Source of the DNA: a bacterium
GTDB taxonomy: Bacteria; Bacteroidota; Rhodothermia; Balneolales; M1805
Direction: 5' to 3'
Assembly (NCBI GenBank): GCA_006226965.1
Contig: SBGQ01000018.1
Span: forward strand, 605 to 64,604
DNA: 64,000 bases
In this document: positions 16,221 to 36,999 of the stretch, one piece after another
How the letters are laid out: each line of letters opens with the position of its first letter
Numbering within the stretch: position 1 is the first letter of the stretch
Program-made: the position numbers and the translations under genes
The notes under the pieces: model-generated
What the model was told of the DNA's origin: nothing
Database searches by the model: none
Seen by the model: only the letters and a program-made list of their open reading frames with translations

Positions 16221-16294
16221 TGGGCCCAGAGGGACTTGAACCCCCGACCAATCGATTATGAGTCGACTGCTCTAACCGACTGAGCTATGGGCCC
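16221..16294 (-). tRNA. tRNA with CAT anticodon (elongator Met, or tRNA-Ile2 read after lysidine modification)
   Basis: The reverse complement is GGGCCCATAGCTCAGTCGGTTAGAGCAGTCGACTCATAATCGATTGGTCGGGGGTTCAAGTCCCTCTGGGCCCA. It forms a cloverleaf with a 7-bp acceptor stem, a GTTCAAGTC T-loop and a CTCATAA anticodon loop. Confidence 0.9.
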
Positions 16295-21898: not shown

Positions 21899-22391
21899 AT
21901 AACATGAATAGTTTGGAGCCTTTCATCAGTTTGCTCACTTTGGAATTTTGGAACCATTTTAAAGCATGAGTTCTGTACTTTTTCACCAGAAAAAGGAAAA
22001 TAGGAAACATAATAGGCGCAGCTAAAACAGAAGCTACAAAACTTCCCATCAAAACCGTGTTATTGAAATTTGTTAAAACCATTGCAGAATTATACCAATC
22101 GGTATAAATGGCTCGCATGCTTTCAAGATTAAGCAAATAAAACCCGAAATCGTGAAAAACGCCGTCGAGTGCAAAGCCGGCCATTGCAAAAATACCCATG
22201 CCAAGTATTGCCATCGAAAAGTTGACATTAAACAGAATGAGAACAATAATGAGTATTACATGGTGAAAACTAAACCATGGGGTGAGCCCCATAATCATTC
22301 CGATTGTTAAACCGCCAGCCAATTGAGCCGGACTGTGTTTTTCGGAATTCAGCAGTTTTATGAGTTTAAAGATGATATCGATTCCAAACAT
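21879..22391 (-). CDS. Small polytopic membrane protein, DUF2062/TIGR03546-like
   Basis: 170 aa. SPAQLAGGLTIGMIMGLTPWFSFHHVILIIVLILFNVN resembles the DUF2062 core. It has four predicted TM segments. Confidence 0.5.
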   Translation of the reverse strand: MFGIDIIFKLIKLLNSEKHSPAQLAGGLTIGMIMGLTPWFSFHHVILIIVLILFNVNFSMAILGMGIFAMAGFALDGVFHDFGFYLLNLESMRAIYTDWYNSAMVLTNFNNTVLMGSFVASVLAAPIMFPIFLFLVKKYRTHALKWFQNSKVSKLMKGSKLFMLYEKFGG

Positions 22392-22764: not shown

Positions 22765-22841
22765 ATCCGACATCCGACATCCGACATCCGACATCCGACA
22801 TCCGACATCCGACATCCGACATCTTACATCCGACATCCGAC
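22765..22841. repeat. Heptanucleotide microsatellite (ATCCGAC)x11, with one variant unit
   Basis: Eleven head-to-tail 7-bp units, counted directly. The ninth unit (22821-22827) reads ATCTTAC. Confidence 0.97.
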
Positions 22842-22879
22842 AAAAAAAAGGGGTGCGTCCTACTACAGATCACAACCCC
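22842..22879 (-). terminator. Possible terminator of the 1796-aa gene
   Basis: On the minus strand, GGGGT...ACCCC forms a 5-bp stem with a large loop, followed by eight T (22849-22842). The stem is weak. Confidence 0.4.
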
Positions 22880-22904
22880 GCTATCTTGATTACCCCGTTT
22901 AAGG

Positions 22905-25900
22905 TTATTTCAGTAAAGTCATTTTCTTCACATCAACTACTTGGTTATCTATGGTGAGTCGATACAGATAAACACCACTCGCAAGTTGCATGCCATTAAA
23001 ATTAGTTGTGTGATATCCTGCGTCAAATGCACTATTTACAAGGGTTGAAATTTTTCTGCCAAGTATATCGAACACTTCGAGGCGAACATGAGCCGGTTTG
23101 GTGACGGCAAAACGCAACACGGTTGTTGGGTTAAACGGATTCGGGAAGTTATCAAATAAGAAAGGTTGTTCCGGAAGAACGTGTTTTTCAACCAATTCTC
23201 TGGTTCCGATATAGGCTTTAAATACTCTTTCTTTAGAAGCATCCAACCATTTTAATGAATCGCCCGGCTCTAATACTTTGTACATATCGTTACTAACTAA
23301 AGCAAGAACATGGGTGTCATTAAACATATTTCCGCTCCAGCTGATTTTGCGATGGCCTTTTGGAATCACAATTTCTCTGTAAGAATTAACAAAGTCTTCA
23401 TCTGTAAAAGCAAGCGGCTGTGCATCTGTTGTAAGTGCCACACCATCGCCTTTAATGTAAGCCGGCAGCGTTTTGATATCAGGCGCTGATGGTAAAAGCG
23501 GTTCATCAAATTCATCAAACTCAGAAATCGCTGAACTTCTGTTCACTAAACGTAGCCATTCATTATCAATAATAATGTCTGATAATAGTTGAAACTCATC
23601 TGGAAGTGCTTGTTTTAATGGAACATCTGAATTCATTGAAGTTGGCGTAACCGTGTCGAGACTCAAGGTTACAGTTGCGTTACTACTCGAATAAACTAAA
23701 TAACCACCCCAAGGTTTGAGCTTTTCAGTAGTTTGAACCGTTGTCCAGTTTTGTGAAACAGCAGAGAACTTCCACATTTTAACTGTACTTAAATTCGCAG
23801 ACCAACTCACTTCTGTTTCGTAAGGGTTTGCAATGAATCTATAGTTATTAAAATTGATAGAGAAGGTTCGATTTGTCATTCGACTACCTGCACCTGTTTG
23901 CAGTTCAAATTTTTGATCTAAACCAAGAGTTTTGAACCACAACGATTTACCTGTTCCGAATACCGGTCCAGCTTCCTCAGAAACATCATAATATTCACCG
24001 CTAGTATTCATATCGAATAACCTGTAATCTTTTCCCGGGATGATATCAGCAAATAAATCTGCCGGTGCGGTATTAATACCTGTTCCGGGAATGGATAACA
24101 ACGTCCAGTTTTTTACAATAATTCCATCTGAATAAGCAGATACTGCGGAATTTGAACTTTGTGTAGAAAACGCTTGGGTTTTTACTGTTACGTTTATGGT
24201 AAGTACGGAAGATTCTGTTGTCGCATCTTGAGCTTTAACGGTTACAGAAGTTTCGCCTTCACTAAATGCTGTAATTGTAAGCGAGTTATTTACGGAGTTA
24301 GCGGCAATGTTTGCTACAGAAGGGTTATTGGATGAGGTTTGGTAAGTCATAGATTCACCATTATCATCTGTAAATAAACTATTCAGCGTATAAATAGCAG
24401 AATTTCCGCCTAAAACAAGAACCACATCAGCAATATTTCCGGTTATTCTCGGGCGTGCATTCACATAAATGTTAAACGCCGAAGAATTTGTTTTTCCGCC
24501 CGGATCTTGAGCGGTTACCGTAAGTGTAGTTGAACCGGCAGCCGTTCCTGTAATCAAAATTTTGTTATTTCCAGAGTTATAAGAACCTCCGGCAATTGAC
24601 GGATTATCAGCAGTGATGGAATAGGTGAGCACATCGCCGTCAGGGTCGCTGAAGTAAACGCTTGGGTCAAGCTGAATGGCAGCATCACCGAGATTAATCG
24701 ATTGATTCGGTATTACAGATAGAACACTTGGTGCACGATTTTCACGAGGTCCTACAGTAACTACAAACTCGTTTTCTGCTTCGGCTTTGCCGTCGGATGC
24801 GGTTACTTTTACAGTAATACTTCCCAATGCAATTGGTTTAATTATTAAAGTTGAACCGTTGGCAATAGAGATTTCTGCAACAGATGGGTTCGGATTGTTA
24901 GTTGAATAACTCAACACATCACCGGCATCAGGGTCATCAAAAACAGTAGTAAGATTGATGGTTGTTGAATCGTCAGCCACACGAGTTTCAACAGTTGCTA
25001 TTGGTGATGCAACTCGAGGAGTGTAATTATCCGGTGCGTTTACATAAACGATGAAGTTTGTACTCACTACACCGCCACGGTCGTCATCTGCAGTTACGGT
25101 GATGGTTGTGTTGCCGATGGCATTGGGAGTGATACTAAATAATTTATTTACCGCATCTGATACACTAGCAACAGATGGTTTACTTGATAAGACCGTGTAA
25201 GACAAGTCGTTACCATCAGCATCAGAAAAAGTTGAAGTTAAATCGATGTTTTGAGGTGAATCCGTTAATCTTAAATCTAAGTCATCTAAAACATTGGCAA
25301 CCACAGGAGCTGAGTTTGTAGAAACACTGATGTTTTTCAGAATTTGGATTTTTGGCTGACTGGAAGGGTAAATCATATAAACCACATCCAAATCACCGTC
25401 TTTATCAACATCAATCAACTTGGGGAATGATTTTGTTGTTGAGTTATTTGATAAATCGGATTTTTTTGAGAATAGATTATCTGTGTAAGTGTAGTAATTT
25501 AAGTATGTGCTGGTACTTGATACTACATCTAATCTTCCGTTATTATCAAGGTCACCAACATCTAAACCTCCAACTTCAGAACCGCTCGGTACACTAAATG
25601 TGATACCGTTAGAAAGATACCCCGGGTCTGCAGTTATATCATTGAAAAAGTAACCAACTGTATTAAAGCTATAACCAATTACATCAATTTTATTATTGCG
25701 AGTAAAATCATCAAAAATGAATGTATGATAATATCCTGGTCTGTAAAACGTGTTCTCATGTTGGAAGAAATCAGAAATCGAATTATTGGTACCAACATAT
25801 AATTTGCCGTTATTATTTGTAGAGCTGGCTACTACCATATCTAGTAATCCATCTCCTGTTACATCTACAGGGGTTACATCATAAGCCTGCTGTGTGGAAG

Positions 25901-28295
25901 TAACCGCATTTGAAATATTAAACGTACCTGCGTTGTTTTTAATAATCATGATAGTTGATGTAGTTGTATAACTTGGTACTACAATTTCAGGGTAACCATC
26001 GTAATCAAAGTCGGCAAATTTAACATTGTCAACAAATGCGTAAACCGTTGTTTCTAATACATCTTCCAAGCTAAAGGTACCTGCTCCGTTATTCTTGTAT
26101 AGATAGATTTGAGCGGTTTTGTTTGGGCTGGTATCATAAATATTGGTTGCATACACATGGAAAATTCCAATATCTGTGCTTCCGTCTTTATTGTAATCAC
26201 CAAGAAATAAACTAATTCTATGAAATGCTCCTGATGAGGAATTGGTTATTCCTCGAAAACGAACCATATCTGGATAATTTCCATTGCCATCATTGAAATA
26301 CACAAAAACGGAATCGACGGTGTTTCCGTAGTTCATTAAAGCAACTAAGTCAATATCATTATCTCCGTCTAAATCGCCTGCTTGAAAAGACTTCCCATAA
26401 TAAGTTGTGTTTGCTGTGTTTAGAGTGAGTTCAGCGGCCGTTTCAAAAGTGGTTCCACCGTTTGAAACCTGTACTCGATAATGTGTTGAGTACGGAAGAA
26501 CGGTAACTCCCTCTTGAGAAATGTAAGTCGAGTTAATACTTAGAGTCACTTTTTCATTGGCTAAAAGTGATTTTATCGGTTTTATAACCAATACACTGTC
26601 GTTCGATTGAGCAGTTATTTGAAGAGAAAGATTACCTCTCAAATTCGAAACCAGACTCACATTGGTAGAATTAAATGAGTTGTTTACAAACTTTCCGCTA
26701 AAGGAGACAGTGATTTGATCCGTTGCACGCATTTTATTTTCGTAGGGACTCGGGCTGGTTCCTATAACATGTAAGGGCGTTACAACATCAATATCGGTCA
26801 AATTTAATTGTGGAAGATTCGCAGAAATTGATTGCAAGCCTGTTGAGCCGTATGGTGTAATTGCTGCCCCAAGTTTTGTTGTTGAACTCGGTATTAATTT
26901 AGCCTCATAATTCCCGGCTTCTAAAGCTTGAAACGTAAATAAGCCATAATCTTCTGTGGTATCATTTTTTACCCAAACATCATCTTTATACAAACTAATA
27001 ATTCTGTTGGGTTCAAAATTTCCATCTTTCCATACTTGCCCTTGAAAATCTCGTTGATTAGCTATTGTTATGGGCGCAGGAGTCGGCACACCCCACTGCT
27101 CGGTAGCGTCTTTTGTTCGAACATAAATCGCGTGGGAGCCGATTGATTGAGTGAGTGTAACCAATGCTCTTGCATCAACCGTAGTTGAATCATAAAATCC
27201 GGTTAAGGTAACAGGCTGTAAATCCATTCCTTGTCCATCAGATGGGTGTTTTGCCCCGGAAAAGAAATATTCCACATCGGTTATATTTTGTGATTCTGTT
27301 AGAGCTTTAGGAATAAATACTAAACGTGATGTATAATTTCCCCAAGTTCCGCTTTCATCCTTCAAACGAAAGTAGAATCGATTAAATCCCGTTTGAAAAC
27401 CATCAAGTGAAATATCTAATTGTTCTGTTAATGTTGCCGAAGGTTCAACATCTATTACATTTCCTGCACCAAAAGCCGGTCTGTTTCCAGAGAAGTATTC
27501 AAGTTGGTTGATTTTTGAAAGTACACGTTCTTCCGGTTGATAGACTGAAAACCCTCTTGGAATTCCCCATGTATTATCAGAATCTTTAAATCTGAAAAAC
27601 AGGCGATGGAATCCCGCTTCACTTGGAGCATCAACTTGCGTATCTGTAATTGTTGCTAATCCGGTTTCCATGGAACCCGCCGCTTCTACCGCTATTCCGG
27701 TTCCCGGTTGACCCAAATCATCATAAAAATATTCTGCACCTGAAATCGGGGAGATGGTTTTTGTATCTGGTACATAAAACAATCTGGATGCATAATTTCC
27801 CCAAGTACCAAAGTTATCCTGAACCCGCACATAAGCTTTATGAAAACCTGGAGTTAAATTAGTGCTTTCTAAATCTATTTCTTTTTCAATTGAAACTACT
27901 TCGCCAGGATTTACACTTGCTGATATACCTGCACCGAATTCCACATTTCCGTTAAAAAAGATTTCGGCATTTGAAACCGTTTTTTCCGGAATCTCCGCCG
28001 GTTTATAGAACACTCTGCGTAATGGAATGCCCCACAATCCATCGGCATCTTTAAATCGAATATATAAAGCATGAAAACCAACACTTAACTGATCAACATC
28101 AATTTCAACATTATCTATAAATGCTTTTTCAATGGATGTATTTACCACAACGGATATACCGTTGCCGGAACCCGGGTCGGTATCAAAAAAATACTCCGCT
28201 GCGGTTATGCTAACAGGCGGGGCAAGTTCCTGTGCTGTAAGCCTTGCTGTTAGTAGCAAGAAGCAAGCCGTTAGAATTATCTTGAAATTTTTCAT
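22905..28295 (-). CDS. Giant secreted surface protein: 5 novel N-terminal repeats, a CarboxypepD_reg-like domain, 7 FG-GAP/VCBS-like repeats, 4 cadherin-like Ig modules and a T9SS C-terminal sorting domain
   Basis: 1796 aa with signal peptide MKNFKIILTACFLLLTARLTAQ. The seven D-x-D/N-x-D-G-x-x-D loops include GDLDGDNDIDLV and IDVDKDGDLDVV. Four repeats of about 100 aa carry F(S/T/D)D(A/P/D)DG.(D/V/S)L(S/T)Y. The tail is FPNPFNPTTVLRF...GVYLYRL...KMTLLK. Confidence 0.85.
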   Translation of the reverse strand: MKNFKIILTACFLLLTARLTAQELAPPVSITAAEYFFDTDPGSGNGISVVVNTSIEKAFIDNVEIDVDQLSVGFHALYIRFKDADGLWGIPLRRVFYKPAEIPEKTVSNAEIFFNGNVEFGAGISASVNPGEVVSIEKEIDLESTNLTPGFHKAYVRVQDNFGTWGNYASRLFYVPDTKTISPISGAEYFYDDLGQPGTGIAVEAAGSMETGLATITDTQVDAPSEAGFHRLFFRFKDSDNTWGIPRGFSVYQPEERVLSKINQLEYFSGNRPAFGAGNVIDVEPSATLTEQLDISLDGFQTGFNRFYFRLKDESGTWGNYTSRLVFIPKALTESQNITDVEYFFSGAKHPSDGQGMDLQPVTLTGFYDSTTVDARALVTLTQSIGSHAIYVRTKDATEQWGVPTPAPITIANQRDFQGQVWKDGNFEPNRIISLYKDDVWVKNDTTEDYGLFTFQALEAGNYEAKLIPSSTTKLGAAITPYGSTGLQSISANLPQLNLTDIDVVTPLHVIGTSPSPYENKMRATDQITVSFSGKFVNNSFNSTNVSLVSNLRGNLSLQITAQSNDSVLVIKPIKSLLANEKVTLSINSTYISQEGVTVLPYSTHYRVQVSNGGTTFETAAELTLNTANTTYYGKSFQAGDLDGDNDIDLVALMNYGNTVDSVFVYFNDGNGNYPDMVRFRGITNSSSGAFHRISLFLGDYNKDGSTDIGIFHVYATNIYDTSPNKTAQIYLYKNNGAGTFSLEDVLETTVYAFVDNVKFADFDYDGYPEIVVPSYTTTSTIMIIKNNAGTFNISNAVTSTQQAYDVTPVDVTGDGLLDMVVASSTNNNGKLYVGTNNSISDFFQHENTFYRPGYYHTFIFDDFTRNNKIDVIGYSFNTVGYFFNDITADPGYLSNGITFSVPSGSEVGGLDVGDLDNNGRLDVVSSTSTYLNYYTYTDNLFSKKSDLSNNSTTKSFPKLIDVDKDGDLDVVYMIYPSSQPKIQILKNISVSTNSAPVVANVLDDLDLRLTDSPQNIDLTSTFSDADGNDLSYTVLSSKPSVASVSDAVNKLFSITPNAIGNTTITVTADDDRGGVVSTNFIVYVNAPDNYTPRVASPIATVETRVADDSTTINLTTVFDDPDAGDVLSYSTNNPNPSVAEISIANGSTLIIKPIALGSITVKVTASDGKAEAENEFVVTVGPRENRAPSVLSVIPNQSINLGDAAIQLDPSVYFSDPDGDVLTYSITADNPSIAGGSYNSGNNKILITGTAAGSTTLTVTAQDPGGKTNSSAFNIYVNARPRITGNIADVVLVLGGNSAIYTLNSLFTDDNGESMTYQTSSNNPSVANIAANSVNNSLTITAFSEGETSVTVKAQDATTESSVLTINVTVKTQAFSTQSSNSAVSAYSDGIIVKNWTLLSIPGTGINTAPADLFADIIPGKDYRLFDMNTSGEYYDVSEEAGPVFGTGKSLWFKTLGLDQKFELQTGAGSRMTNRTFSINFNNYRFIANPYETEVSWSANLSTVKMWKFSAVSQNWTTVQTTEKLKPWGGYLVYSSSNATVTLSLDTVTPTSMNSDVPLKQALPDEFQLLSDIIIDNEWLRLVNRSSAISEFDEFDEPLLPSAPDIKTLPAYIKGDGVALTTDAQPLAFTDEDFVNSYREIVIPKGHRKISWSGNMFNDTHVLALVSNDMYKVLEPGDSLKWLDASKERVFKAYIGTRELVEKHVLPEQPFLFDNFPNPFNPTTVLRFAVTKPAHVRLEVFDILGRKISTLVNSAFDAGYHTTNFNGMQLASGVYLYRLTIDNQVVDVKKMTLLK

Positions 28296-28375
28296 GTTAA
28301 AATCTGCTTTACGCTTTTAAAATGCTGTATTTTATCTGATTGAAACTCACACAAAACAATCAGATAGTTTAAGAA

Positions 28376-29569
28376 TTAGTTCTTTTTAGATTGACCGGTA
28401 ACATTTAAAATTACTTTTCCGCCGGTTACAGCAGTTGGTAAGCTTAAACGCAAATTGGTAACACTCGGAACAACTGAAATACCAACTGCTCTGGATGGAA
28501 GTACGGTAGGCATCGGGTCTAAACCTCCGAAAATACCTCTGTCAGCTGTTGTACCGTCGATATCTAAACCGGAACCGGAATCTTTAGCACCGGAAGCATC
28601 ATTTAGTGCAAAATTAAAATTGGCGACATCTACGAATTGAGGATTCAAATAATTGTTATTGTTTGCATCATTTGCCCCACCGCCGTCAAGGGTTACTAGA
28701 TTTGTAGGATACGTTAAATATCCAATACCTTGCTCATGGAAGAATGTATTGTTTTGATAGCTTTGTGCGCCTGAAATGGCAGTTGAGTTATATGGATAGT
28801 CATACACATAGGCAAAGATATTATTAGTAAGTGTAACGGCGCCGCCAAAATATGTCGGACGATTATAACCGGTAACCAATCTGAAAATGTTGTTATTAAA
28901 CAATCCAACGGAAGTGTCATCGAGAGTAAGGTAATTCACGTTAGATACTCGAGTATTCACATTTGATAATAAAAATGAATTGGAAACTATAAAGTTTGTA
29001 GTTGTACTAATATCTAAAACAGCTGTGTTGGATAGCTCTTTTAAATACAAATGAAATAGTTTAATACCTGTACATCCGCCAACAGCCATATTTCCTGCTT
29101 CAACATATTCCACTTCGGCACCAACCGAGTTACGTACTCGCAAATGATAATTTGTTGTCGAAATTACTTCCGTAGTTTTTACAGCTTTAATTTTTACACT
29201 GTCAACAAAGTTGATATCAATGGATTTACACTCAAATCCGCCGAGTACAAAACCGTCTAAATTGGTATTGTTTACACTACCGCCATTTAAAGAAATGGCG
29301 CCAAGTTTGGTAACTAAACCTGTTGCACCGTTAGCACCACCACCGGCAATGGTTAATTTTTTTCCGGTTGATGTCATGGATAAATCGCCATAACTCGTTG
29401 CTGATGGAACAACTAAGATAATATCACCTGAAGTAGCTGCTGAAATAGCTGAACTTAATGTGGTGAAATCACCAATCCCGTTTGGATTGTTATCAACGAT
29501 ATGAGTGGTTTGCGCTTGAGCTAAACCGGTAACTAAGCAAAGGCTTAATAAGATGCTTTTTGTTTTCAT
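28376..29569 (-). CDS. Secreted right-handed beta-helix-like protein (pectate-lyase fold suspected)
   Basis: 397 aa with signal peptide MKTKSILLSLCLVTGLAQAQ. The N-terminus (THIVDNNPNGIGDFTTLSSAISAATSGDIILV) is typical of beta-helix proteins. Short N/G/T-rich repeats are spread throughout. Confidence 0.45.
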   Translation of the reverse strand: MKTKSILLSLCLVTGLAQAQTTHIVDNNPNGIGDFTTLSSAISAATSGDIILVVPSATSYGDLSMTSTGKKLTIAGGGANGATGLVTKLGAISLNGGSVNNTNLDGFVLGGFECKSIDINFVDSVKIKAVKTTEVISTTNYHLRVRNSVGAEVEYVEAGNMAVGGCTGIKLFHLYLKELSNTAVLDISTTTNFIVSNSFLLSNVNTRVSNVNYLTLDDTSVGLFNNNIFRLVTGYNRPTYFGGAVTLTNNIFAYVYDYPYNSTAISGAQSYQNNTFFHEQGIGYLTYPTNLVTLDGGGANDANNNNYLNPQFVDVANFNFALNDASGAKDSGSGLDIDGTTADRGIFGGLDPMPTVLPSRAVGISVVPSVTNLRLSLPTAVTGGKVILNVTGQSKKN

Positions 29570-29605
29570 AGTAGGTGTGAGTTTTTTAAGTGTTTAATAA
29601 AATTT

Positions 29606-30778
29606 CTATCGACTAAATGGAGTTGGCAGAGCTGGAGGATTTCCATAACTACCGCTTCCTGTTGTTCCGCCGCCTGAGCCGGCTGTGAAGTAATAAGCAG
29701 CTCCGCCTGCTGCTGCCGCTAAAAGCAGATACAACCAGGTATTAGAGCTTTTTTTAGATTCAATTTTTGGTTGAGTTGCCGAATTCAGCGTAACTGAAAT
29801 CGATTTAGATCCATCGCCGGAATACAAGGTTATTTGTCTGGATTCGTCTTTATAATTCTGTTTAGTGATACGAATCGTGTACGTATCAGGCTCTAAATCA
29901 ATGCTAAATGAGCTTGGTTTGTTTAATTGGTTGATACTCTGTCCCGCCTGATTAACAATTAATAAGTCATATCCTGAAACGTTCACATTCATGGTTAAAC
30001 GAACGGTTTCTTTTTTGAGAGTAACATTCATGGGCGTGGGTTGACCCGCATTCACCCGAATTGTTTTGTTTTCTGTCTGATAACCGCTTTTGGAAATCGA
30101 AATGGAATAATCTCCTTCAGTTAAATCGGTAAAAGTAGCAACACCTGAGCGAACAGTTCCCGTAATGGTTTTGCCTTCCTTAGGTTGAACACTAATTCGA
30201 GCGCCATCACCATCAGGAACAAAGATTTGGAGTGAGCCGAAAATATCTCGGTCGTATTGTGGCGCTTCGGAAACATCAATAGAAAAGAAAACGACCTGTT
30301 GTTTGTAAAATGTAAGAACTTCGTTAAAGGTAAATTCTCTGGAATCAATCTTTAATCGTTTTGAAGTAGCGTCTTCTGCACCTAAAAACTCATAAGCAAA
30401 TTTTAAACGAATCTGATTTCCTTTGATTCTGGAATTTGCGCCGTCAAAAAAGATCCCGTCGATACTCAACGAATTAGAACGAATCCAGTCTAAAACTCCG
30501 TCTTCTTTGAAGTATTTACGCGCGGCATCAGCAATGGTAAATACAATAACCCCTTCATCCTCTTCAAGTTTAGGTACTACCATCTCAGACGAGCTGAACT
30601 GAGCACTTTTATCTACAAAAGTGATTTTAAGTTTCCCTTTTTTTATCACATTCTGCGCCTGAGCGATTGAGAATGTACTCATCAGAGTAACAAAAAGAAC
30701 CATTACCAATCGAATGATGGTTACAGCTGTTTTGGATGATGGATTTCCGTTGTAATTCATAGTTCTAAGGTTTTTCAA
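29606..30778 (-). CDS. Envelope protein with two PEGA-like domains, a C-terminal TM helix and a Gly-rich tail
   Basis: 390 aa with an N-terminal signal anchor. The PEGA-like blocks are GDYSISISKSGYQTENKTIRVNAGQPTPMNVTL and DTYTIRITKQNYKDESRQITLYSGDGSKSISVTL. The C-terminus is WLYLLLAAAAGGAAYYF followed by GSGGGTTGSGSYGNPPALPTPFSR. Confidence 0.45.
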   Translation of the reverse strand: MKNLRTMNYNGNPSSKTAVTIIRLVMVLFVTLMSTFSIAQAQNVIKKGKLKITFVDKSAQFSSSEMVVPKLEEDEGVIVFTIADAARKYFKEDGVLDWIRSNSLSIDGIFFDGANSRIKGNQIRLKFAYEFLGAEDATSKRLKIDSREFTFNEVLTFYKQQVVFFSIDVSEAPQYDRDIFGSLQIFVPDGDGARISVQPKEGKTITGTVRSGVATFTDLTEGDYSISISKSGYQTENKTIRVNAGQPTPMNVTLKKETVRLTMNVNVSGYDLLIVNQAGQSINQLNKPSSFSIDLEPDTYTIRITKQNYKDESRQITLYSGDGSKSISVTLNSATQPKIESKKSSNTWLYLLLAAAAGGAAYYFTAGSGGGTTGSGSYGNPPALPTPFSR

Positions 30779-31832
30779 AGGAAGTAAGATGATCGGTGAG
30801 CGGGTTTAACAACATGCAAAGCACTGACAGTTTTTCAATTTGCTGTTTATTATTCAAGGTTTGATCGATGCGTAACACATGTTCATAACCTAACTCAGTA
30901 TGTTTAAAAAGAAACAAAAAGCGAATACTTAACGCATCTTTTGCAGTTAAAACACCAATTGCTTTTTGTTCGCCAAAAGCAGATAAAAATTGGATGAGGT
31001 GATTCAATGTGTTCGATTTTTCACTCACATCAGAATAATGCAAGGTATCTCGTTTTACAAGTTTAATGGAGAAGTCGGCATTATTCGCGAAATCTTCTTC
31101 CGTAAAACCGGCTTCCAACCATTTTTTTAATAATGGTTGTGTTGAATCCGCTTTAATTAACATTCCGGTCGGGAAGCTGGAATCTTCATTCAAACTGTAG
31201 GATAGTTGCGGACGCGGAACAATGGGTTCTTCTAAAGAGCGGAATAAAAACTCAGTATAAAATTCGGTATTACCACCTAAGACATCCGCCAACTTCGGAC
31301 GGATATCAATATGGCAAAGAGTGTCGGAGTTTTGAATGAAAAATAAACTGCTGTGCTTGTCAGCAGATTCATAGGCGTATGTAATTTTTTTTGATTCCCA
31401 AAGTGATAGAAGGCGTTTATTGTCTTCTTTATCAAATTTCAGAAAAGCGTTTCGAACAGTAAACGAACTGCTGGTAAGATAACTCCAAAGCAAAGGTTCC
31501 ATTTGGTTGTCGAGCGCCCATAAAACCATGCCGGCTAACTGTTTTTCTAAACTTCTATCCGATTGGTCTTTCACTTGGGGCGATTGGAAAAGCCACTCAA
31601 CGGCAAAAGGTTCGCCAAATGTGGATTTATGAATTAAATAGTGTTTGTTATGATGTGTGGCAACTACGTGTTCAGCGCCCGGAATGGTAGTTGGAACAAC
31701 ACTTGATTTCGTTTCCAAGTAGGTTGAAGCTCTCCAGTTTTGATACGAATCTAAAAACAGAGATTGAGCATAACTTGCTGTCGGCAAGATGCTGCATACA
31801 ATCCAAAACCCTATCCTCAACCCCAATTTCAT
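30765..31832 (-). CDS. Hypothetical secreted protein
   Basis: 355 aa with signal peptide MKLGLRIGFWIVCSILPTASYAQS. I recognise no family. It overlaps the downstream gene by 14 nt. Confidence 0.5.
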   Translation of the reverse strand: MKLGLRIGFWIVCSILPTASYAQSLFLDSYQNWRASTYLETKSSVVPTTIPGAEHVVATHHNKHYLIHKSTFGEPFAVEWLFQSPQVKDQSDRSLEKQLAGMVLWALDNQMEPLLWSYLTSSSFTVRNAFLKFDKEDNKRLLSLWESKKITYAYESADKHSSLFFIQNSDTLCHIDIRPKLADVLGGNTEFYTEFLFRSLEEPIVPRPQLSYSLNEDSSFPTGMLIKADSTQPLLKKWLEAGFTEEDFANNADFSIKLVKRDTLHYSDVSEKSNTLNHLIQFLSAFGEQKAIGVLTAKDALSIRFLFLFKHTELGYEHVLRIDQTLNNKQQIEKLSVLCMLLNPLTDHLTSFEKP

Positions 31833-31838
31833 AGTTTT

Positions 31839-32861
31839 CTATTTTATAAGATCGAACATACTCATATCAATCACTTTGTTTTCGCCTTTAACCACAATCG
31901 GTTTTTCGTGCCAGGCTCTAACATAAATCAAAGGACGATTTTCATCCTCATAATCAATCATCAAAAACAAATATCCTTCGTCACTGTAACGTTGTGAGTT
32001 CCAAACTTGAAACAGGTTTACGCCATAAACTTCAGGATAATCAGGGTGACGAGTAATACGAACACCGTCAAATTTTACATCAATAAAGGAATTTGCCTTA
32101 AACAGATTTCGGAGACGCTCAATGTATTCATTTTTGGTCTGGGTGAGGTACTTGTAATTAGAATCGCCGCCAATTTCATCATAAGAAGGTTTTAAGCCGT
32201 CGTGTTCATCATCTTTTTTGATTTTAACCCCGCTGATGATGAGCGCTTTTTCACTAAACTGTGTTTCAATGTAATCTAAATCTTTGCGATTATAAGCTGT
32301 TCGAAACTGTTCTACATAAGAGAGGATTTGTTTACGACGTAGTTCATCCGTTAAATCCACACTGTAACGTAGCATTTTTTGATAACGAGTTTTCTCCAAA
32401 GCAAATCGAACAGAAAGCAATTGTCCCGCATTGTTAAAAAGGAGCACAAGTTCGCGGTCGTTGTCGGTACGACCTTCATTTAAGGACGCATCAATTTCAA
32501 CGGGAATACCTCGAATTTCGTAAATCTGGTCTTTTTGAACGAGTAAATCGGTTTCTATAACTTCTTCTGTTACTTTAATGTGAGTGTTTTTTACCAATTC
32601 TTTAAGTTCTTCGAAACCATCAGCGCCCTCATTCGAACGAATTTCAGTCGGAACATCTAATGAAGAGCCATCTGAATTATTAATAGCTCGCAAGACTACC
32701 GTAGCATGTAATTCTATGAGTTTATCCAAACTGGGTTCAACACCTTTGGATATAACCAACTTGGGCTGAATCTGTGCATCAACCTGAAAAAATGTTGAAG
32801 AGAAAATAAGTAGGGTGATTACAAGTGACTTCATAAACGGGACTAATTCTTTTTTACCCAA
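31839..32861 (-). CDS. Hypothetical secreted protein with a possible C-terminal NTF2-like domain
   Basis: 340 aa. The signal peptide is best read from the internal Met (MKSLVITLLIFSSTFFQVDAQ, start 32834). The C-terminal part (YVEQFRTAYNRKDLDYIETQFSEKALII ... YLFLMIDYEDENRPLIYVRAW) has an NTF2/SnoaL-like pattern. This is a weak call. Confidence 0.45.
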   Translation of the reverse strand: MGKKELVPFMKSLVITLLIFSSTFFQVDAQIQPKLVISKGVEPSLDKLIELHATVVLRAINNSDGSSLDVPTEIRSNEGADGFEELKELVKNTHIKVTEEVIETDLLVQKDQIYEIRGIPVEIDASLNEGRTDNDRELVLLFNNAGQLLSVRFALEKTRYQKMLRYSVDLTDELRRKQILSYVEQFRTAYNRKDLDYIETQFSEKALIISGVKIKKDDEHDGLKPSYDEIGGDSNYKYLTQTKNEYIERLRNLFKANSFIDVKFDGVRITRHPDYPEVYGVNLFQVWNSQRYSDEGYLFLMIDYEDENRPLIYVRAWHEKPIVVKGENKVIDMSMFDLIK

Positions 32862-34924
32862 ATTAGGTACTTACCACGATAGCTTTCAACCAGCGATACA
32901 ACTTCTGTGCCTGTATCCACTTTATAAAAACGATTCTGCGAAAAGACCAAGCGTTCATATACTTTTTCTTGATCGGCTACTAAAATTAATGCACCTTCAG
33001 AATCAGGTAAATCAGCTTGTTTGCCAAAAATAAGCTCACCTTTTGCCTTTTTGTTTGTAAGTAATGTGAGTAAACCCTTGGTAGTATTCGATTCAGAAAT
33101 TTCTTTATAAGCCTGATTAATATTCAATTTTTTAGGCGCATTTGTGTTGGCTAATGCCGACATGTCTGCGATTGCCGAATTGTCTTTTTCTTCTTTAGTG
33201 ATTTGTTCAACTACAGCAATCGGTTCACGAGCACCTTCTTTAGTTCGAATGCGCTTAGAATCTAAATCAACATACCGTTTTATGCCTAAACTTGGTTCAG
33301 CATTAAGTTCAACATCCAACTCAAACTGGCCGGATTCTTCATAGGTGTAACTTAATTTGGGTTCTGATGTGTAACGTTCTTCACCATCGCCTAAAACCCA
33401 TCTCACTTCACGAACAAGTTTCGGATCTATGTTTTCGAGTTCTAAGTCAACTCGTTTTCCGAAAAATGTCCCTTTTACTGAATATTTAAAAATATTTGTG
33501 AAATTCACTTGAATGCTTTTGGAGACTGAAAGACGTTTAATGTCTTCCAGTTCTTTTATGGTAGGATCAGACTTTAAATCGTCTGAAATATCAATAAAGA
33601 GATTAATCGTGAATTCCTCTTTAGGATATTCCGGAACATAGCCCGGCAAGTTTAGTCTGCCGCGTCCATTTCGAAGAACTTCGGTAAAATTGTAAGATTG
33701 AAATTTGAACTGATAAAGGAGTCCGTTCAGCGGATTATCCTTATACAAAATCTGAAAAGGTGCAACGATATCTTTTTCATCAATGAGATAAGCTGGACGA
33801 GCTAATACGCTTACTTGATCTTTGAGTAAAACGTCGATTTTCGAACGCATACTTTCTTGAAGGTTTTCAGTGCGTGTGCCGTCAAGAAAAGAGTAAGGCA
33901 GATTTTCGTAGTAGGTATCCGCCAAAATATACGTCTTGTAATAGCCTTTAAGTCCCGAAACTAAATTGCCGTTGGTAAAAGCCCGGTCAGCTTCATCGGC
34001 AGATGCTATAATTTTACTTTTAACGGTTTCGAAACTTTTGGCTTTGTCTTCTAATGTGATGTAAGTGAATGCATACCATTCGTTGCCGAGGTTTAAGGAA
34101 ATCGTTTGCAAACCTTGAAGAGTCATCTGAGCAAAAACACGATTTTTAGCAGTGAATTCTTCTTCAAAAACAGTTCCAGTCATGTTTTCTTTTATATCAG
34201 AAACTTTGTTACTCGATAAAAATCGGTCATCTACTTTACCGTTAATATCTGTAACAACTTGCTCAGTTGTGGCATTAACAACTGTGCCAGACTGGTTCAC
34301 ATTTACCGTTTTTTCTGAGGTGGTTAAGTTGGTTTCTGTTGTAATTTTGGCTGAGAATTGAGTAATCAAATTTCCGCGTGCGACAGCAATGGCATCATCT
34401 TGTTTTTCAGAAAATGCTTCACCAAAATTATATAATTGAGCATTTCTGTAGCGAATGGTAGCACGTTGAACTGCATAATTTTTAGCTTCATAGTCACTTA
34501 CATATAAATAGACTTCATCATTGCCGGTTTTGCCCCAAGTTAATTCTTTGGCATTCATCGGAAGTTGACGCAATTTAACACGAAGTTGTTGTTCATCTAC
34601 TTCGTCTTGGAGTGAACCGTTTGTAGTTATGGGTTCAGAAACGCGGAATTTAGCTAAAATCTTTTGTTCAATTTGTTTGCGTGCATCTTGGCGGGCATTC
34701 TCTAAAGTGTTGCCTTTTCCATACGCTGCAAAAATGCCGTTTTCTTTTTCAATTTCTTTAATTGCATTTTTAATCGCTCTGGGTTGAGCTAAAGAAACAG
34801 CAAAAAATCCCTCAAATACCAAAAAAATGACAGGAATTAGACCTGTACCCCATTTTTTAAACAATTCCATACCTATAAACGGATTTCTAAGATTCAATAA
34901 TAAAACTTGTTGAAAGTACTTCAT
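32843..34924 (-). CDS. Hypothetical envelope protein with two LPP20-like segments and a PKD-like domain
   Basis: 693 aa. The likely true start is Met19 (nt 34870), giving signal peptide MELFKKWGTGLIPVIFLVFEGFFAVSLAQP. The LPP20-like stretches are YGKGNTLENARQDARKQIEQKI and AFSEKQDDAIAVARGNLITQFSAKI. The PKD-like block is RWVLGDGEERYTSEPKLSYTYEESGQFELDVEL. Confidence 0.5.
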   Translation of the reverse strand: MKYFQQVLLLNLRNPFIGMELFKKWGTGLIPVIFLVFEGFFAVSLAQPRAIKNAIKEIEKENGIFAAYGKGNTLENARQDARKQIEQKILAKFRVSEPITTNGSLQDEVDEQQLRVKLRQLPMNAKELTWGKTGNDEVYLYVSDYEAKNYAVQRATIRYRNAQLYNFGEAFSEKQDDAIAVARGNLITQFSAKITTETNLTTSEKTVNVNQSGTVVNATTEQVVTDINGKVDDRFLSSNKVSDIKENMTGTVFEEEFTAKNRVFAQMTLQGLQTISLNLGNEWYAFTYITLEDKAKSFETVKSKIIASADEADRAFTNGNLVSGLKGYYKTYILADTYYENLPYSFLDGTRTENLQESMRSKIDVLLKDQVSVLARPAYLIDEKDIVAPFQILYKDNPLNGLLYQFKFQSYNFTEVLRNGRGRLNLPGYVPEYPKEEFTINLFIDISDDLKSDPTIKELEDIKRLSVSKSIQVNFTNIFKYSVKGTFFGKRVDLELENIDPKLVREVRWVLGDGEERYTSEPKLSYTYEESGQFELDVELNAEPSLGIKRYVDLDSKRIRTKEGAREPIAVVEQITKEEKDNSAIADMSALANTNAPKKLNINQAYKEISESNTTKGLLTLLTNKKAKGELIFGKQADLPDSEGALILVADQEKVYERLVFSQNRFYKVDTGTEVVSLVESYRGKYLIWVKKN

Positions 34925-34935
34925 TCGAAGTAATT

Positions 34936-34951
34936 GGCAAAAACAAAGCCA
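34936..34951 (-). promoter_or_regulatory. Candidate sigma-54 (-24/-12) promoter TGGCTTTGTTTTTGC
   Basis: The minus strand reads TTGGCTTTGTTTTTGCC. GG (34950-34949) and GC (34938-34937) have the canonical TGGC-N7-TTGC spacing. The element lies in the 80-nt gap upstream of the six-gene block. Confidence 0.3.
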
Positions 34952-35004: not shown

Positions 35005-35706
35005 TTACTTTTTAATAAACTTCTTTTTAAGTGCCGAATATTCACGTATATACATTTTATTTCTGCCGAAAGTAATAATTCCCTCTTTTTTCAACTCATT
35101 TAAAACTGTGGTAACGGTTTGTCTTGATGTAGCAGTTAAATGAGCAATTTCCTCGTGAGTAAAAAACGGTTTAATGAAGGCTTCATCTACTTCTGCTCGT
35201 AAATGAGGTTCACCAACTTCTAATAAAAAACTCAAAATGCGGTCTTCCGAACTCATGAAAATTAAATCGGATAACTTTTTTTCAATGAGTTGCAAACGTT
35301 CGCCGATTCGTTTGTAAACCTGGCGGGCAAGTTGCGGGTGATTGTTTATGATGTCTAAAAACTTCTTTTTCTCGAAGCTGCACACCATTACTTCTTCATC
35401 TAATGCTTCTGCCTGATGTGTTCGTTCTCCGGCATCAACTAAAGACAATTCCCCGAATATTTCACCCGGATTAACCACATACAAAGTGGTTTCTTTACCG
35501 TCTTCGGTGCCTTTTGTTATTTTTACACGACCCTTTTTAAGAAAATAGATGTAATCTGATGGGGAGCCTTGCAGGTAAATGGCTTCTTTTTTATAGGAAT
35601 TATGCAGAGCACTATCATCATCAAATTGTAAAAGCAAATCTCTAGGTATTTCCTTGAGCAAGTCAAATTGCTCGAAATGCCAAATTTTATCCAATTTATT
35701 GCTCAT
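35005..35706 (-). CDS. Crp/Fnr family transcriptional regulator
   Basis: 233 aa. The cNMP-binding fold includes GEIFGELSL, and the C-terminal HTH is EIAHLTATSRQTVTTVLNELKKEGII. Confidence 0.85.
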   Translation of the reverse strand: MSNKLDKIWHFEQFDLLKEIPRDLLLQFDDDSALHNSYKKEAIYLQGSPSDYIYFLKKGRVKITKGTEDGKETTLYVVNPGEIFGELSLVDAGERTHQAEALDEEVMVCSFEKKKFLDIINNHPQLARQVYKRIGERLQLIEKKLSDLIFMSSEDRILSFLLEVGEPHLRAEVDEAFIKPFFTHEEIAHLTATSRQTVTTVLNELKKEGIITFGRNKMYIREYSALKKKFIKK

Positions 35707-35733: not shown

Positions 35734-36999
35734 TTATGAATCATCCCGAACAATGCTTTGCAAGATGTGACTGCTATGGGAATCAAAACCACTTAATTCA
35801 TGTCCCATTTTTTCGCGTTTTGTATTCAAATAACGCTCATTTTCTGGCCATGGTTTAAACTCGATTGGTACGCGTTCTTCAATCTCTAATCCGTAGCCTT
35901 GTAAGCCGACTCTTTTAGTCGGATTGTTAGTGAGCAATTTCATCTTCTTAACATTTAATGAGCGAAGAATTTGTGCTCCAACGCCATAGTCGCGGTGGTC
36001 CGGTTTAAATCCAAGTGCTACATTAGCTTCAACAGTATCTAAGCCTTGCTCCTGTAATTGGTAAGCTTTTAATTTGTTGATTAATCCAATTCCACGCCCT
36101 TCCTGATTCATGTACAGAACGATTCCTTTTCCTGCTTTCTCAACGGCTTCCAATGCAGCGTGTAATTGTTGGCCACAATCACAACGTTTAGAACCGAAAA
36201 TATCGCCGGTTATACAAGAGGAGTGAACGCGAACTAAGACAGGTTCTTCTTCTGTCCACTCACCTTTAGTCATGGCCAAATGAGTACCGCCGTTTAAACG
36301 TTCTTCGAAGGCGTGTAACTGAAAATCGCCATAAATAGTAGGCAGGTTTACACTGATTAAATCACGCACTAAAGTCTCATGCTCCATACGATAAGCAATG
36401 AGGTCTTTAATGGTTATCAGCTTTAAATCTAATTTTTTTGCCACTTTGATGAGGTCGGGAACACGAGCCATCGTTCCGTCTTCATTCATGATTTCGCAAA
36501 TTACACCGGCAGGTTGTAATCCGGCTAAGCGAGCTAAATCTACAGAAGCTTCTGTATGTCCGGCTCTTCTTAAAACACCGCCTTCGGCAGCGATAAGCGG
36601 GAAAATATGTCCCGGACGTCTAAAATCGTAAGGTTTTGCTTTCGGGTCTATAAGCGCCTTTATGGTATTGGAGCGGTCGCTAGCAGAAATCCCTGTAGTT
36701 GTACCTTCACGCAAATCAATAGAAACAGTAAAAGCCGTTTCCATTGATTCGGTGTTTTCGTGAACCATGCGGTCCAAATTTAATTCAAATGCGCGTTGGC
36801 GGGTAACAGGTGCGCAGATTAAACCGCGCCCTAAAGTTGCCATTTTATTTACCGCTTGTGGTGTAACAAGTTCGGCCGCCATCACAAAATCGCCTTCGTT
36901 TTCACGGTCTTCATCATCTACAACGATAATCATATCGCCACGTTTGATGGCTTCAATTGCTGATTCGATGGTATCGAAAACGATTTGTGTGTCGCTCAT
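35734..36999 (-). CDS. ribBA: Bifunctional 3,4-dihydroxy-2-butanone-4-phosphate synthase / GTP cyclohydrolase II
   Basis: 421 aa. The RibB blocks are [12 protein letters not shown] and [14 protein letters not shown]. The RibA blocks are [19 protein letters not shown] and [11 protein letters not shown]. Confidence 0.95.

Follow-up and report, generated by a model that had tools for sequence, protein, structure and literature searches.

Giant adhesins exported by the type IX secretion system (T9SS) are known from operons of the sprCDBF type in Flavobacterium, in which the adhesin is co-transcribed with accessory envelope proteins. FlgP, in turn, forms periplasmic rings under the outer membrane and does so through a hairpin insert; in the FlgP family, ring oligomerisation correlates with an insert between the helix and strand 2 (PMC12222027). 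In Pgp2, peptidoglycan binds in the NTF2 domain's pocket (PMC8038945). Finally, FtsZl1 (Tubulin_2) operons are proposed to remodel membranes, and FtsZl1 genes associate with lineage-specific envelope proteins (PMC2875224). Here, these systems are compared with a block of six genes for predicted exported proteins in a 64,000-nucleotide (nt) stretch of DNA from a bacterium of the Balneolales (lineage M1805; contig SBGQ01000018.1 of assembly GCA_006226965.1, positions 605 to 64,604), which is referred to as the window.

The six open reading frames (ORFs) are all on the minus strand, where an earlier note made from this sequence had placed them. They are gene 1 (component A; 32843–34924, 693 amino acids, aa), gene 2 (component B; listed ORF 31839–32861, 340 aa, or 31839–32834 and 331 aa from a conserved ATG), gene 3 (component C; 30765–31832, 355 aa), gene 4 (component D; listed ORF 29606–30778, 390 aa, or 29606–30760 and 384 aa from an ATG), gene 5 (28376–29569, 397 aa) and gene 6 (22905–28295, 1796 aa). 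The GC content is ~38%, and the products are named 'hypothetical protein EP331_009xx' by NCBI.

Genes 1–4 appear to belong to a conserved, undescribed envelope module, and our confidence in this is much higher than in our model of the block as a whole. The earlier note had read the block as an apparatus of five accessory factors dedicated to one giant T9SS cargo. Its compact same-strand unit of exported proteins stands, whereas the dedication is not supported, as genes 1–4 form an autonomous module that mostly occurs without a giant adhesin and genes 5 and 6 occur only in the clade of the window. The finding is thereby broader than a lone adhesin operon, yet less specific: the giant T9SS protein is a clade-specific addition. 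No described system of such composition was found in the open-access literature, which agrees with the earlier note, and from its sequences the module is rated as a kind of system not yet described, though built from familiar domains.

Comparison with described systems

Each of the nearest known systems shares only one feature with the block, and their defining features fail here. With FlgP and the LPP20 family, the gene-1 family has in common an LPP20/SHS2-like domain with a hairpin between helix and strand 2. In addition, TPR/Sel1 proteins lie beside the module in Bacteroidales, much as PflA and PflB accompany FlgP in the Campylobacter basal disk (FlgP, FlgQ). However, the window block has no flagellar genes nearby, and Bacteroides and Prevotella, which are non-flagellated, carry the module too. 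Gene 1 has a signal peptidase I site in place of a lipobox Cys and so is no lipoprotein; at six times the size of FlgP, it also holds Ig/PKD domains and one more domain at the C-terminus. In the window clade its hairpin is about twice as long as that of FlgP, and gene 1 misses the Pfam LPP20 threshold.

For the second NTF2-like domain of gene 2, the nearest family is PF24125, the accessory NTF2 domain of Csd6, Pgp2 and Bd1075, but gene 2 lacks the LD-carboxypeptidase domain of those proteins. With TcpC, gene 2 shares the presence of two NTF2-like domains in tandem. The likeness to sprCDBF is that of a very large, repetitive T9SS protein encoded last or late in an operon with several exported proteins. 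Here the differences are that the sorting domain of gene 6 is of type A (TIGR04183) and not type B, and that genes 1–4 are unrelated to SprC and SprD and are widespread without an adhesin. Neither a PorP/SprF-like family nor a type B C-terminal domain (CTD) family was found in genes 1–6 with Pfam and NCBIfam. As for FtsZl1 operons, about 10 Bacteroidales/Vicingaceae loci carry a 1000-aa Tubulin_2 protein and a transmembrane (TM)/MORN protein directly before C-A-B, in keeping with the published link of FtsZl1 genes to envelope proteins of single lineages. The window block lacks an FtsZl1 gene as well as the vWA, kinase, GTPase and OmpA partners, and the module families are not among the associated families in the FtsZl1 neighbourhood tables (PMC2875224).

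A conserved module around gene 2

Relatives of gene 2 were counted by a pattern scan, one genome per species, and confirmed by tblastn. They occur in 546 species genomes and in taxa as different as Bacteroides, Phocaeicola, Parabacteroides, Prevotella, Barnesiella, Cryomorphaceae, Ignavibacteriaceae, Latescibacterota, Neomarinimicrobiota and Balneolales. The best 80 of these 546 genomes were used for locus comparison (loci carry the prefix L), and 1239 proteins, from ORFs called in the fetched loci and the window region, were clustered (clusters carry the prefix c). Neighbours were counted in those 58 loci that extend 4 kb or more to both sides of gene 2, a partner being any family member within four same-strand genes.

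In the inspected loci, gene 2 always stands in a same-strand cluster. Directly upstream of it stand one or both of two kinds of protein, the gene-1 type and an unannotated type of ~375 aa. The former, the A type with an LPP20-like, a PKD and a C-terminal domain, is cluster c3 (32 loci), of which c25 is the short form; the ~375-aa type is cluster c1 (55 loci). Directly downstream is a protein of D type, either multi-PEGA (c5) or TPR (c2). Among the 58 loci, partners belong to the C family in 47, to the D type in 54 and to the LPP20-like A type in 42. The recurring orders are C-A-B-D, A-B-C-D, which is the type of the window, and a-x-C-B-d. The families A, B, C and D thus co-localise around gene 2 across several phyla at 16–45% identity, which argues that genes 1–4 are the local form of a four-component module.

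What follows the module differs among lineages. Most module loci have no giant adhesin after it, and Bacteroidales have unrelated housekeeping genes downstream. In other environmental lineages the module is followed by surface-type proteins: four fn3/beta-propeller proteins in L005, a cohesin-domain protein in L010 and, in L044, an fn3-LVIVD propeller together with a vWA protein that has a T9SS tail.

The upstream side, or head, also varies. In a Prevotella-type head, a CHASE2 membrane protein, a secreted Sel1-repeat caspase (Peptidase_C14) and a DUF4384 protein precede C-B-d on the same strand, giving a conserved six-gene arrangement in gut and rumen Prevotellaceae (L006/L007, L039, L046, L054, L060, L061, L072, L085 and L087). 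A second head consists of a ~1030-aa protein with an N-terminal Tubulin_2 (FtsZl1) GTPase domain (E = 2e-42 in L016) and a small Zn-ribbon/TM/MORN protein, and so pairs a cytoplasmic tubulin-like protein with the exported module proteins (L016, L017, L027, L029, L051, L052, L064, L069, L078 and L083). A third head in Bacteroidales is an LPP20-like protein with a TPR/Sel1 protein. In four Balneolaceae loci (L034, L041, L043 and L079) the run is PBP1A-like protein, LPP20 lipoprotein, PEGA/barrel protein, c28, A, B and a lipoprotein (c21); L036 has the same run from the LPP20 lipoprotein onward, its inspected part excluding the PBP1A site. The neighbouring PBP1A peptidoglycan synthase fits a cell-wall role, and may be coincidental.

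A role in defence was considered for the core proteins and rejected, as PADLOC gave no defence-model match for genes 1–5 or for representatives of c1, c2, CHASE2 and Tubulin_2. The Prevotella caspase matched only the generic 'caspase' model of PADLOC.

Components of the module

Behind its signal peptide, the gene-1 product has a pair of LPP20/SHS2-like domains and a helical region; Ig-like and PKD domains come next, and an alpha/beta domain forms the C-terminus. The LPP20-like and PKD-like hints of the earlier note are reproduced for this protein, both below threshold (PKD, E = 0.0016; LPP20, E = 0.035), and representatives of its relatives are sub-threshold for LPP20 as well (E = 0.0043 and 0.00048). 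Further support came from profiles. A profile of the family (28 sequences), searched against the PDB, matched PKD domains (E = 7e-10) and the LPP20-family chain 4kzs (E = 1.2e-3), and a profile of the second domain only, from 17 family members, matched 4kzs, a 'LPP20 lipofamily protein', over 81 positions and through the insert described below (E = 1.1e-4). Homologues of gene 1 number 10 among 5.8 billion proteins, at 52–100% identity.

The AlphaFold2 (AF2) model of gene 1 was built from an alignment of 10 similar sequences and has a predicted local distance difference test (pLDDT) score of 70 and a predicted template modelling (pTM) score of 0.40, with single domains at ~80–90. The first LPP20/SHS2-like domain (34445–34780, minus strand; residues 49–160; pLDDT ~85) has no long insert. 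The second (34055–34432, minus; residues 165–290) is modelled as strand 165–172, helix 175–194, a hairpin of strands 201–227 and 230–256, and strands 273–278 and 283–290, with a core of moderate confidence. An SHS2 core with a hairpin between helix and strand 2 is thus present in the model, the insert being of ~56 residues (nt 34157–34324, minus; residues 201–256). It stands at the same site in all 17 aligned members of the A family and measures ~30 aa in most of them and ~72 aa in the window clade. This is the position of the ring-forming hairpin of FlgP, and because the insert in the FlgP family correlates with ring formation (PMC12222027), component A is predicted from the model to oligomerise, probably, into FlgP-like rings.

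The remainder of gene 1 comprises the Ig-like beta-sandwich (nt 33500–33814, minus; residues 371–475), the PKD domain (33266–33481, minus; residues 482–553) and the C-terminal domain (32846–33127, minus; residues 600–693; pLDDT ~80). Short A-type proteins from Bacteroides share the last of these (hhalign, c3 versus c25, 98.8% over ~90 columns). A Foldseek search with the whole model returned only generic tandem Ig/fn3 proteins, the N-terminal domains having no structural match. The N-terminus (...FFAVSLA↓QPRAIK) is of the signal peptidase I type.

Gene 2 is a secreted protein of two tandem NTF2-like domains, as modelled by AF2 with 55 relatives (pLDDT 89, pTM 0.83). Domain 1 spans nt 32400–32762 on the minus strand (residues 34–154 of the 340-aa ORF, 25–145 of the 331-aa model) and domain 2 nt 31905–32357 on the same strand (residues 169–319 and 160–310, respectively). 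An NTF2-like hint had been noted earlier and recurs here as a sub-threshold match to Pfam Cds6_C (PF24125) at E = 0.004; among the 55 family members, 49 match this model at E <= 0.01, the best at 5.1e-7. In the PDB, Foldseek found Bd1075 at the top (E = 2.9e-7), as well as beta subunits of ring-hydroxylating dioxygenases, Pgp2 and the conjugation protein TcpC. No LD-carboxypeptidase (YkuD-like) domain was found in gene 2 by Pfam or NCBIfam, and the model consists of NTF2-like domains only.

Across the 55 sequences there are 24 invariant columns, most of them in the second domain, which points to a conserved ligand-binding or active site there. Residues R178, Y181, D185, Y283, D285 and R306 are among those that do not vary in this domain. 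By analogy with Pgp2, we infer that component B may bind peptidoglycan, or another envelope ligand, in this highly conserved pocket. Its homologues, 507 among 5.8 billion proteins and down to ~33% identity, are all called 'hypothetical', and come from Balneolales, Marinimicrobia, Zixibacteria and others. In two Bacteroidales metagenome-assembled genomes gene 2 is tandemly duplicated within the module, with three copies in L051 and two in L064.

Gene 3 is secreted and evolves fast. As the earlier note had it, no domain can be recognised: Pfam, NCBIfam, PADLOC and the PDB gave no match. Only three proteins among 5.8 billion match gene 3, and its profile found five relatives at E <= 1e-30 among 1.84 billion cluster representatives, all of its own small family. 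Local jackhmmer searches seeded with the gene that follows gene 2 in L013, L010 and L044 joined gene 3 over its full length to clusters c83 and c150, and tied it to c68 and c1 via a C-terminal domain of ~100 aa. Gene 3 is, on these intermediate sequences, treated as a divergent member of the C family. Profiles of the C family and of gene 3 gave nothing usable against PDB sequences.

Gene 4 has a signal peptide and an N-terminal region of unassigned fold, followed by two PEGA/CarboxypepD_reg beta-sandwiches (nt 29774–30205). The two PEGA-like domains suggested earlier were borne out, with CarboxypepD_reg at 55.4 bits (cut-off 32.3) and PEGA at 41.9 bits (cut-off 20.8), two stretches each, and so was the C-terminal TM helix, read from the sequence at residues 348–364 of the 390-aa ORF (nt 29687–29737). 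A Gly/Pro-rich tail of 26 aa follows the helix; a PEP-CTERM or GlyGly-CTERM sorting signal was considered and rejected on account of these 26 residues. Gene 4 is related to the PEGA proteins of c5 (hhalign 97%). The D-type proteins of c2 all carry W or F as their last residue, preceded by alternating hydrophobic residues (40 of 40), and 12 of the 23 in c5 end in F, C-termini which are a signature of outer-membrane beta-barrels.

Genes 5 and 6 and their clade

Gene 5 is secreted and has relatives only in the window clade. Its only Pfam match is DUF5123, at E = 0.007 and in one of three orthologues, and neither the single sequence nor a profile matched PDB sequences. These searches gave no confirmation of the beta-helix proposed in the earlier note. 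The C-terminal ~60 aa (window 28376–28560) are almost invariant in three orthologues that are otherwise 55–59% identical, and read DGTTADRGI.GGLDPMP.VLPS.A.G.SVVPS.TN..LSLPTAVTGGKVIL.V.GQSKKN. This segment matches no T9SS CTD model and may be an interaction or sorting segment.

Gene 6 is, from its domains, a giant adhesin-like surface protein of T9SS type A. After the signal peptide come about five repeats of ~90 aa (nt 27051–28217, minus strand) and then Big_5, an FG-GAP propeller region (~nt 25416–26438, minus; FG-GAP_3, 84 bits), cadherin-like/Big_9 modules (~nt 24186–25343, minus) and the type A sorting domain (nt 22923–23147, minus; residues 1717–1791; TIGR04183, matched over residues 1717–1789 with 32.8 bits against a cut-off of 23). 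The FG-GAP propeller, cadherin-like modules and T9SS tail of the earlier note were all recovered in this way (Pfam FG-GAP_3, Big_2, Big_9 and Big_5; TIGR04183). Pfam Por_Secre_tail reached 25.6 bits, just below its threshold of 27.

The order of the block is kept far more than expected by chance. Genes 1–6 stand in order in the window and in L004, where gene 6 encodes 1805 aa, and L088 has genes 1–5 and the start of a gene-6 relative before its contig ends. Conservation of gene order in relatives, on which the earlier reading depended, is therefore present, and at considerable divergence: between the window and L088 identity is 28% for gene 3, 55% for gene 5 and 39% for the start of gene 6 (N-terminal repeats). 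The block is found behind three different upstream neighbours. These are yajC-ribBA-Crp in the window, L002 and L008 (in the latter two the contig stops inside the module or just past it); a methyltransferase in L004, with all six genes, and in L091, whose contig ends in gene 5; and GcvP in L088, L089 and L090 (the contigs of L089 and L090 end after gene 4). The same order behind three neighbours suggests that the six-gene arrangement is selected within the window clade.

Organisation of the six-gene unit

The junctions of −19, +6, −14, +36 and +80 nt described earlier are reproduced from the listed ORF coordinates. Both overlaps hinge on TTG codons, listed as starts simply for coming first after a stop; the conserved in-frame ATGs at 32834 and 30760, which an independent gene caller chose on the same contig, turn the overlaps into +8 and +4. 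With either choice of start all five junctions are short. The true start of gene 1 is probably the ATG at residue 19.

That every product carries an export signal, as the earlier note proposed, also holds. As read, each of the six N-termini combines a positively charged n-region and a hydrophobic core with a cleavage site of the form A↓Q (SLA↓QP, VDA↓QI, SYA↓QS, AQA↓QN, AQA↓QT and LTA↓QE in genes 1–6, respectively), the signal peptidase I pattern typical of Bacteroidota. The same N-termini hold no lipobox in any of the six products. We predict that all six are exported via Sec and signal peptidase I. Also in keeping with the earlier description, five of the six reach no curated family threshold in Pfam or NCBIfam, generic domains aside.

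Internal promoters or terminators that might split the block were sought with a simple sigma-70 promoter and terminator scan, which may not suit Bacteroidota promoters and which placed no site at the junctions. Promoter-like sites in the block are fewer than in shuffled controls, and terminator-like sites are about equal to controls. A 10-bp hairpin in the spacer between genes 5 and 6 was dropped as a candidate, with a z-score of −1.06 and no counterpart in L004.

Directly after the gene-6 stop there is a conserved 3' element (22842–22900, minus strand) that consists of the box CCTTAAACGGGGTAATCAAGATAG, a GGGG...CCCC hairpin and a run of 8 U. In L004 the gene-6 orthologue has a downstream sequence of 88% identity to this element, with two stem pairs changed in a compensatory way, despite a protein identity between window and L004 of only 34–72%. 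We interpret the element as the intrinsic terminator of the unit. The 24-nt box itself is identical at 22877–22900 (minus) of the window and at 20138–20161 of L004, and it could be more than part of a terminator, for example a protein-binding or RNA-processing site. Element and box are single-copy in the window, and Rfam has no match for the block or for the 3' element. Co-transcription of the six genes is, from this layout, plausible.

A proposed explanation and its alternatives

We propose that the block is one unit in which genes 1–4 make a periplasmic scaffold, paired in the window clade with a T9SS adhesin as payload. This whole model is tentative, and we give it somewhat less than an even chance. 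The six genes would form a single, terminator-bounded transcription unit. Component A would oligomerise via its SHS2-like domain and long hairpin, with the Ig/PKD and C-terminal domains as spacers or docking sites. B would be a soluble tandem-NTF2 protein whose second domain, of the Csd6/Pgp2/Bd1075 type, holds peptidoglycan or another envelope ligand, and C would be a rapidly diverging adaptor. D would fix the assembly to a membrane, most lineages outside the window clade using an outer-membrane beta-barrel and the window clade a TM helix. In that clade the module would be joined to a two-gene payload, namely the unclassified secreted protein of gene 5 and the T9SS-exported adhesin of gene 6, and the scaffold would organise, anchor or regulate the latter at the surface. 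On this model A, B, C and D would associate physically, and gene 6 would have a functional tie to the module. Ring formation and a direct role in adhesin display are held to be less likely than the model as a whole.

Several points weigh against this model. No mechanistic tie connects a periplasmic module with a T9SS cargo, and the module also occurs in genomes without such cargo. The LPP20 match of gene 1 scores 15 bits against a Pfam threshold of 25.9 (residues 59–90), and its hairpin has a pLDDT <50 in a monomer model made from 10 similar sequences. For gene 2, Cds6_C scores 18 bits against a gathering threshold of 27; NTF2 folds serve many functions, catalysis included, so that B might instead use its conserved pocket for catalysis. 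The link between gene 3 and the C family comes from iterative searches in a small local database and mainly from the C-terminal 100 aa, and a direct hhalign of gene 3 against c1 gave a probability of only 22%. Finally, the anchor of D in the window is alpha-helical, a topology unlike that of the barrel-anchored D proteins elsewhere.

A bolder version of the scaffold model would make A-B-C-D an unrecognised, non-flagellar periplasmic ring or disk, widespread in the FCB group, with FlgP-like SHS2 domains, tandem-NTF2 proteins attached to peptidoglycan and PEGA proteins to the membrane. It would receive lineage-specific inputs (tubulin-like GTPase, caspase/CHASE2) and have lineage-specific outputs (T9SS adhesins, propeller/fn3 proteins). 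This version we regard as rather doubtful.

The alternatives differ in what they make of the association between the module and gene 6. Genes 1–5 might be specific chaperones, anchors or assembly factors for gene 6, as in sprCDBF. The recurrence of genes 1–6 in order (L004), and of genes 1–5 with the start of gene 6 (L088), in a clade with three upstream contexts speaks for such a dedication, as do the tight spacing with its single terminator after gene 6 and the surface-type secreted proteins that follow the module in other lineages. We nevertheless consider it unlikely: the families of genes 1–4 stand together in hundreds of species with no relative of gene 5 or 6 nearby, including in Bacteroides and Phocaeicola, and Pfam and NCBIfam place no PorP/SprF-like or other known T9SS accessory family in genes 1–5. 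To our knowledge, Bacteroides and Phocaeicola mostly lack a T9SS. At the opposite extreme, the six genes could be unrelated neighbours, common secreted hypotheticals held together by the general synteny of close relatives. The synteny with L004 does run on to the unrelated DUF2062/TIGR03545 genes, and genes 3, 5 and 6 are confined to a narrow clade. General synteny fits poorly with families that co-localise across phyla at 16–45% identity, with an order that is kept while the upstream neighbour differs in three contexts, and with the conserved junctions of 4–36 nt among genes 1–5, and we think this reading very unlikely.

Two further alternatives start from possible functions. A-B-C-D could act at the envelope as the output arm of a regulated system for stress, cell death or membrane remodelling, the copy in the window being 'headless' and set beside an adhesin gene. 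This would accord with the three alternative same-strand heads before the Bacteroidales module (CHASE2/caspase/DUF4384, Tubulin_2/MORN, and TPR/Sel1 with LPP20-like protein) and with the membrane remodelling proposed for FtsZl1 operons (PMC2875224). The heads are, however, absent from the window and from the C-A-B-D loci of Ignavibacteria, Marinimicrobia and related groups, the core proteins have no PADLOC match and the module is missing from the FtsZl1 neighbourhood tables, and we judge an output arm to be quite unlikely. A locus for polysaccharide or matrix processing would have gene 5 as a beta-helix lyase or hydrolase, gene 2 as an NTF2-fold enzyme and gene 6 as a carbohydrate-binding surface protein. 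It could draw on the weak DUF5123 match in gene 5 and on the strongly conserved polar and aromatic residues in the second domain of gene 2, which are compatible with an active site. Against it, Pfam and NCBIfam searches of the block and the genes beside it revealed neither a glycoside hydrolase, lyase or glycosyltransferase nor SusC/D or an export gene, and the beta-helix of gene 5 is only putative, with no PDB match and DUF5123 matched in one of three orthologues; this last alternative is highly improbable.

If the scaffold model is true, a widespread four-gene module encodes an undescribed envelope structure, shared by marine Balneolales and Marinimicrobia and by the abundant gut and rumen genera Bacteroides, Prevotella, Parabacteroides and Phocaeicola. 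The ring-building solution of the flagellar basal disk would then also be used outside flagella, several large families of 'hypothetical' exported proteins would gain a function, and the way in which some Bacteroidota arrange giant T9SS adhesins on their surface would become easier to study. Irrespective of mechanism, the module families and their three heads are a defined target for comparative genomics that can be tested in tractable gut Bacteroidales.

Flanking sequence

Upstream of the block, 80 nt from gene 1, is a regulator of the Crp/Fnr family (35005–35706, minus strand; Pfam cNMP_binding and HTH_Crp_2). The earlier note was right that it lies directly upstream in the window; among close relatives, a single one of the three upstream contexts retains it, and so it gives no evidence of a dedicated regulator. 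Around the adjoining ribBA gene (35734–36999 and upstream) no FMN riboswitch was detected in an Rfam scan of the whole window at the gathering threshold, which returned a single tRNA (16221–16294, minus).

Downstream, the pair TIGR03546 (DUF2062) and TIGR03545 occupies 19991–22391 of the window (minus strand), and the same pair follows the block in L004. Synteny between the two reaches past the block on this side only. The 513-nt non-coding gap before the DUF2062 gene contains a heptamer microsatellite, (ATCCGAC) x 11 on the plus strand (GTCGGAT on the minus strand), at 22765–22842. It looks perfect, begins right after the U-run of the gene-6 terminator and is missing at the equivalent site of L004.

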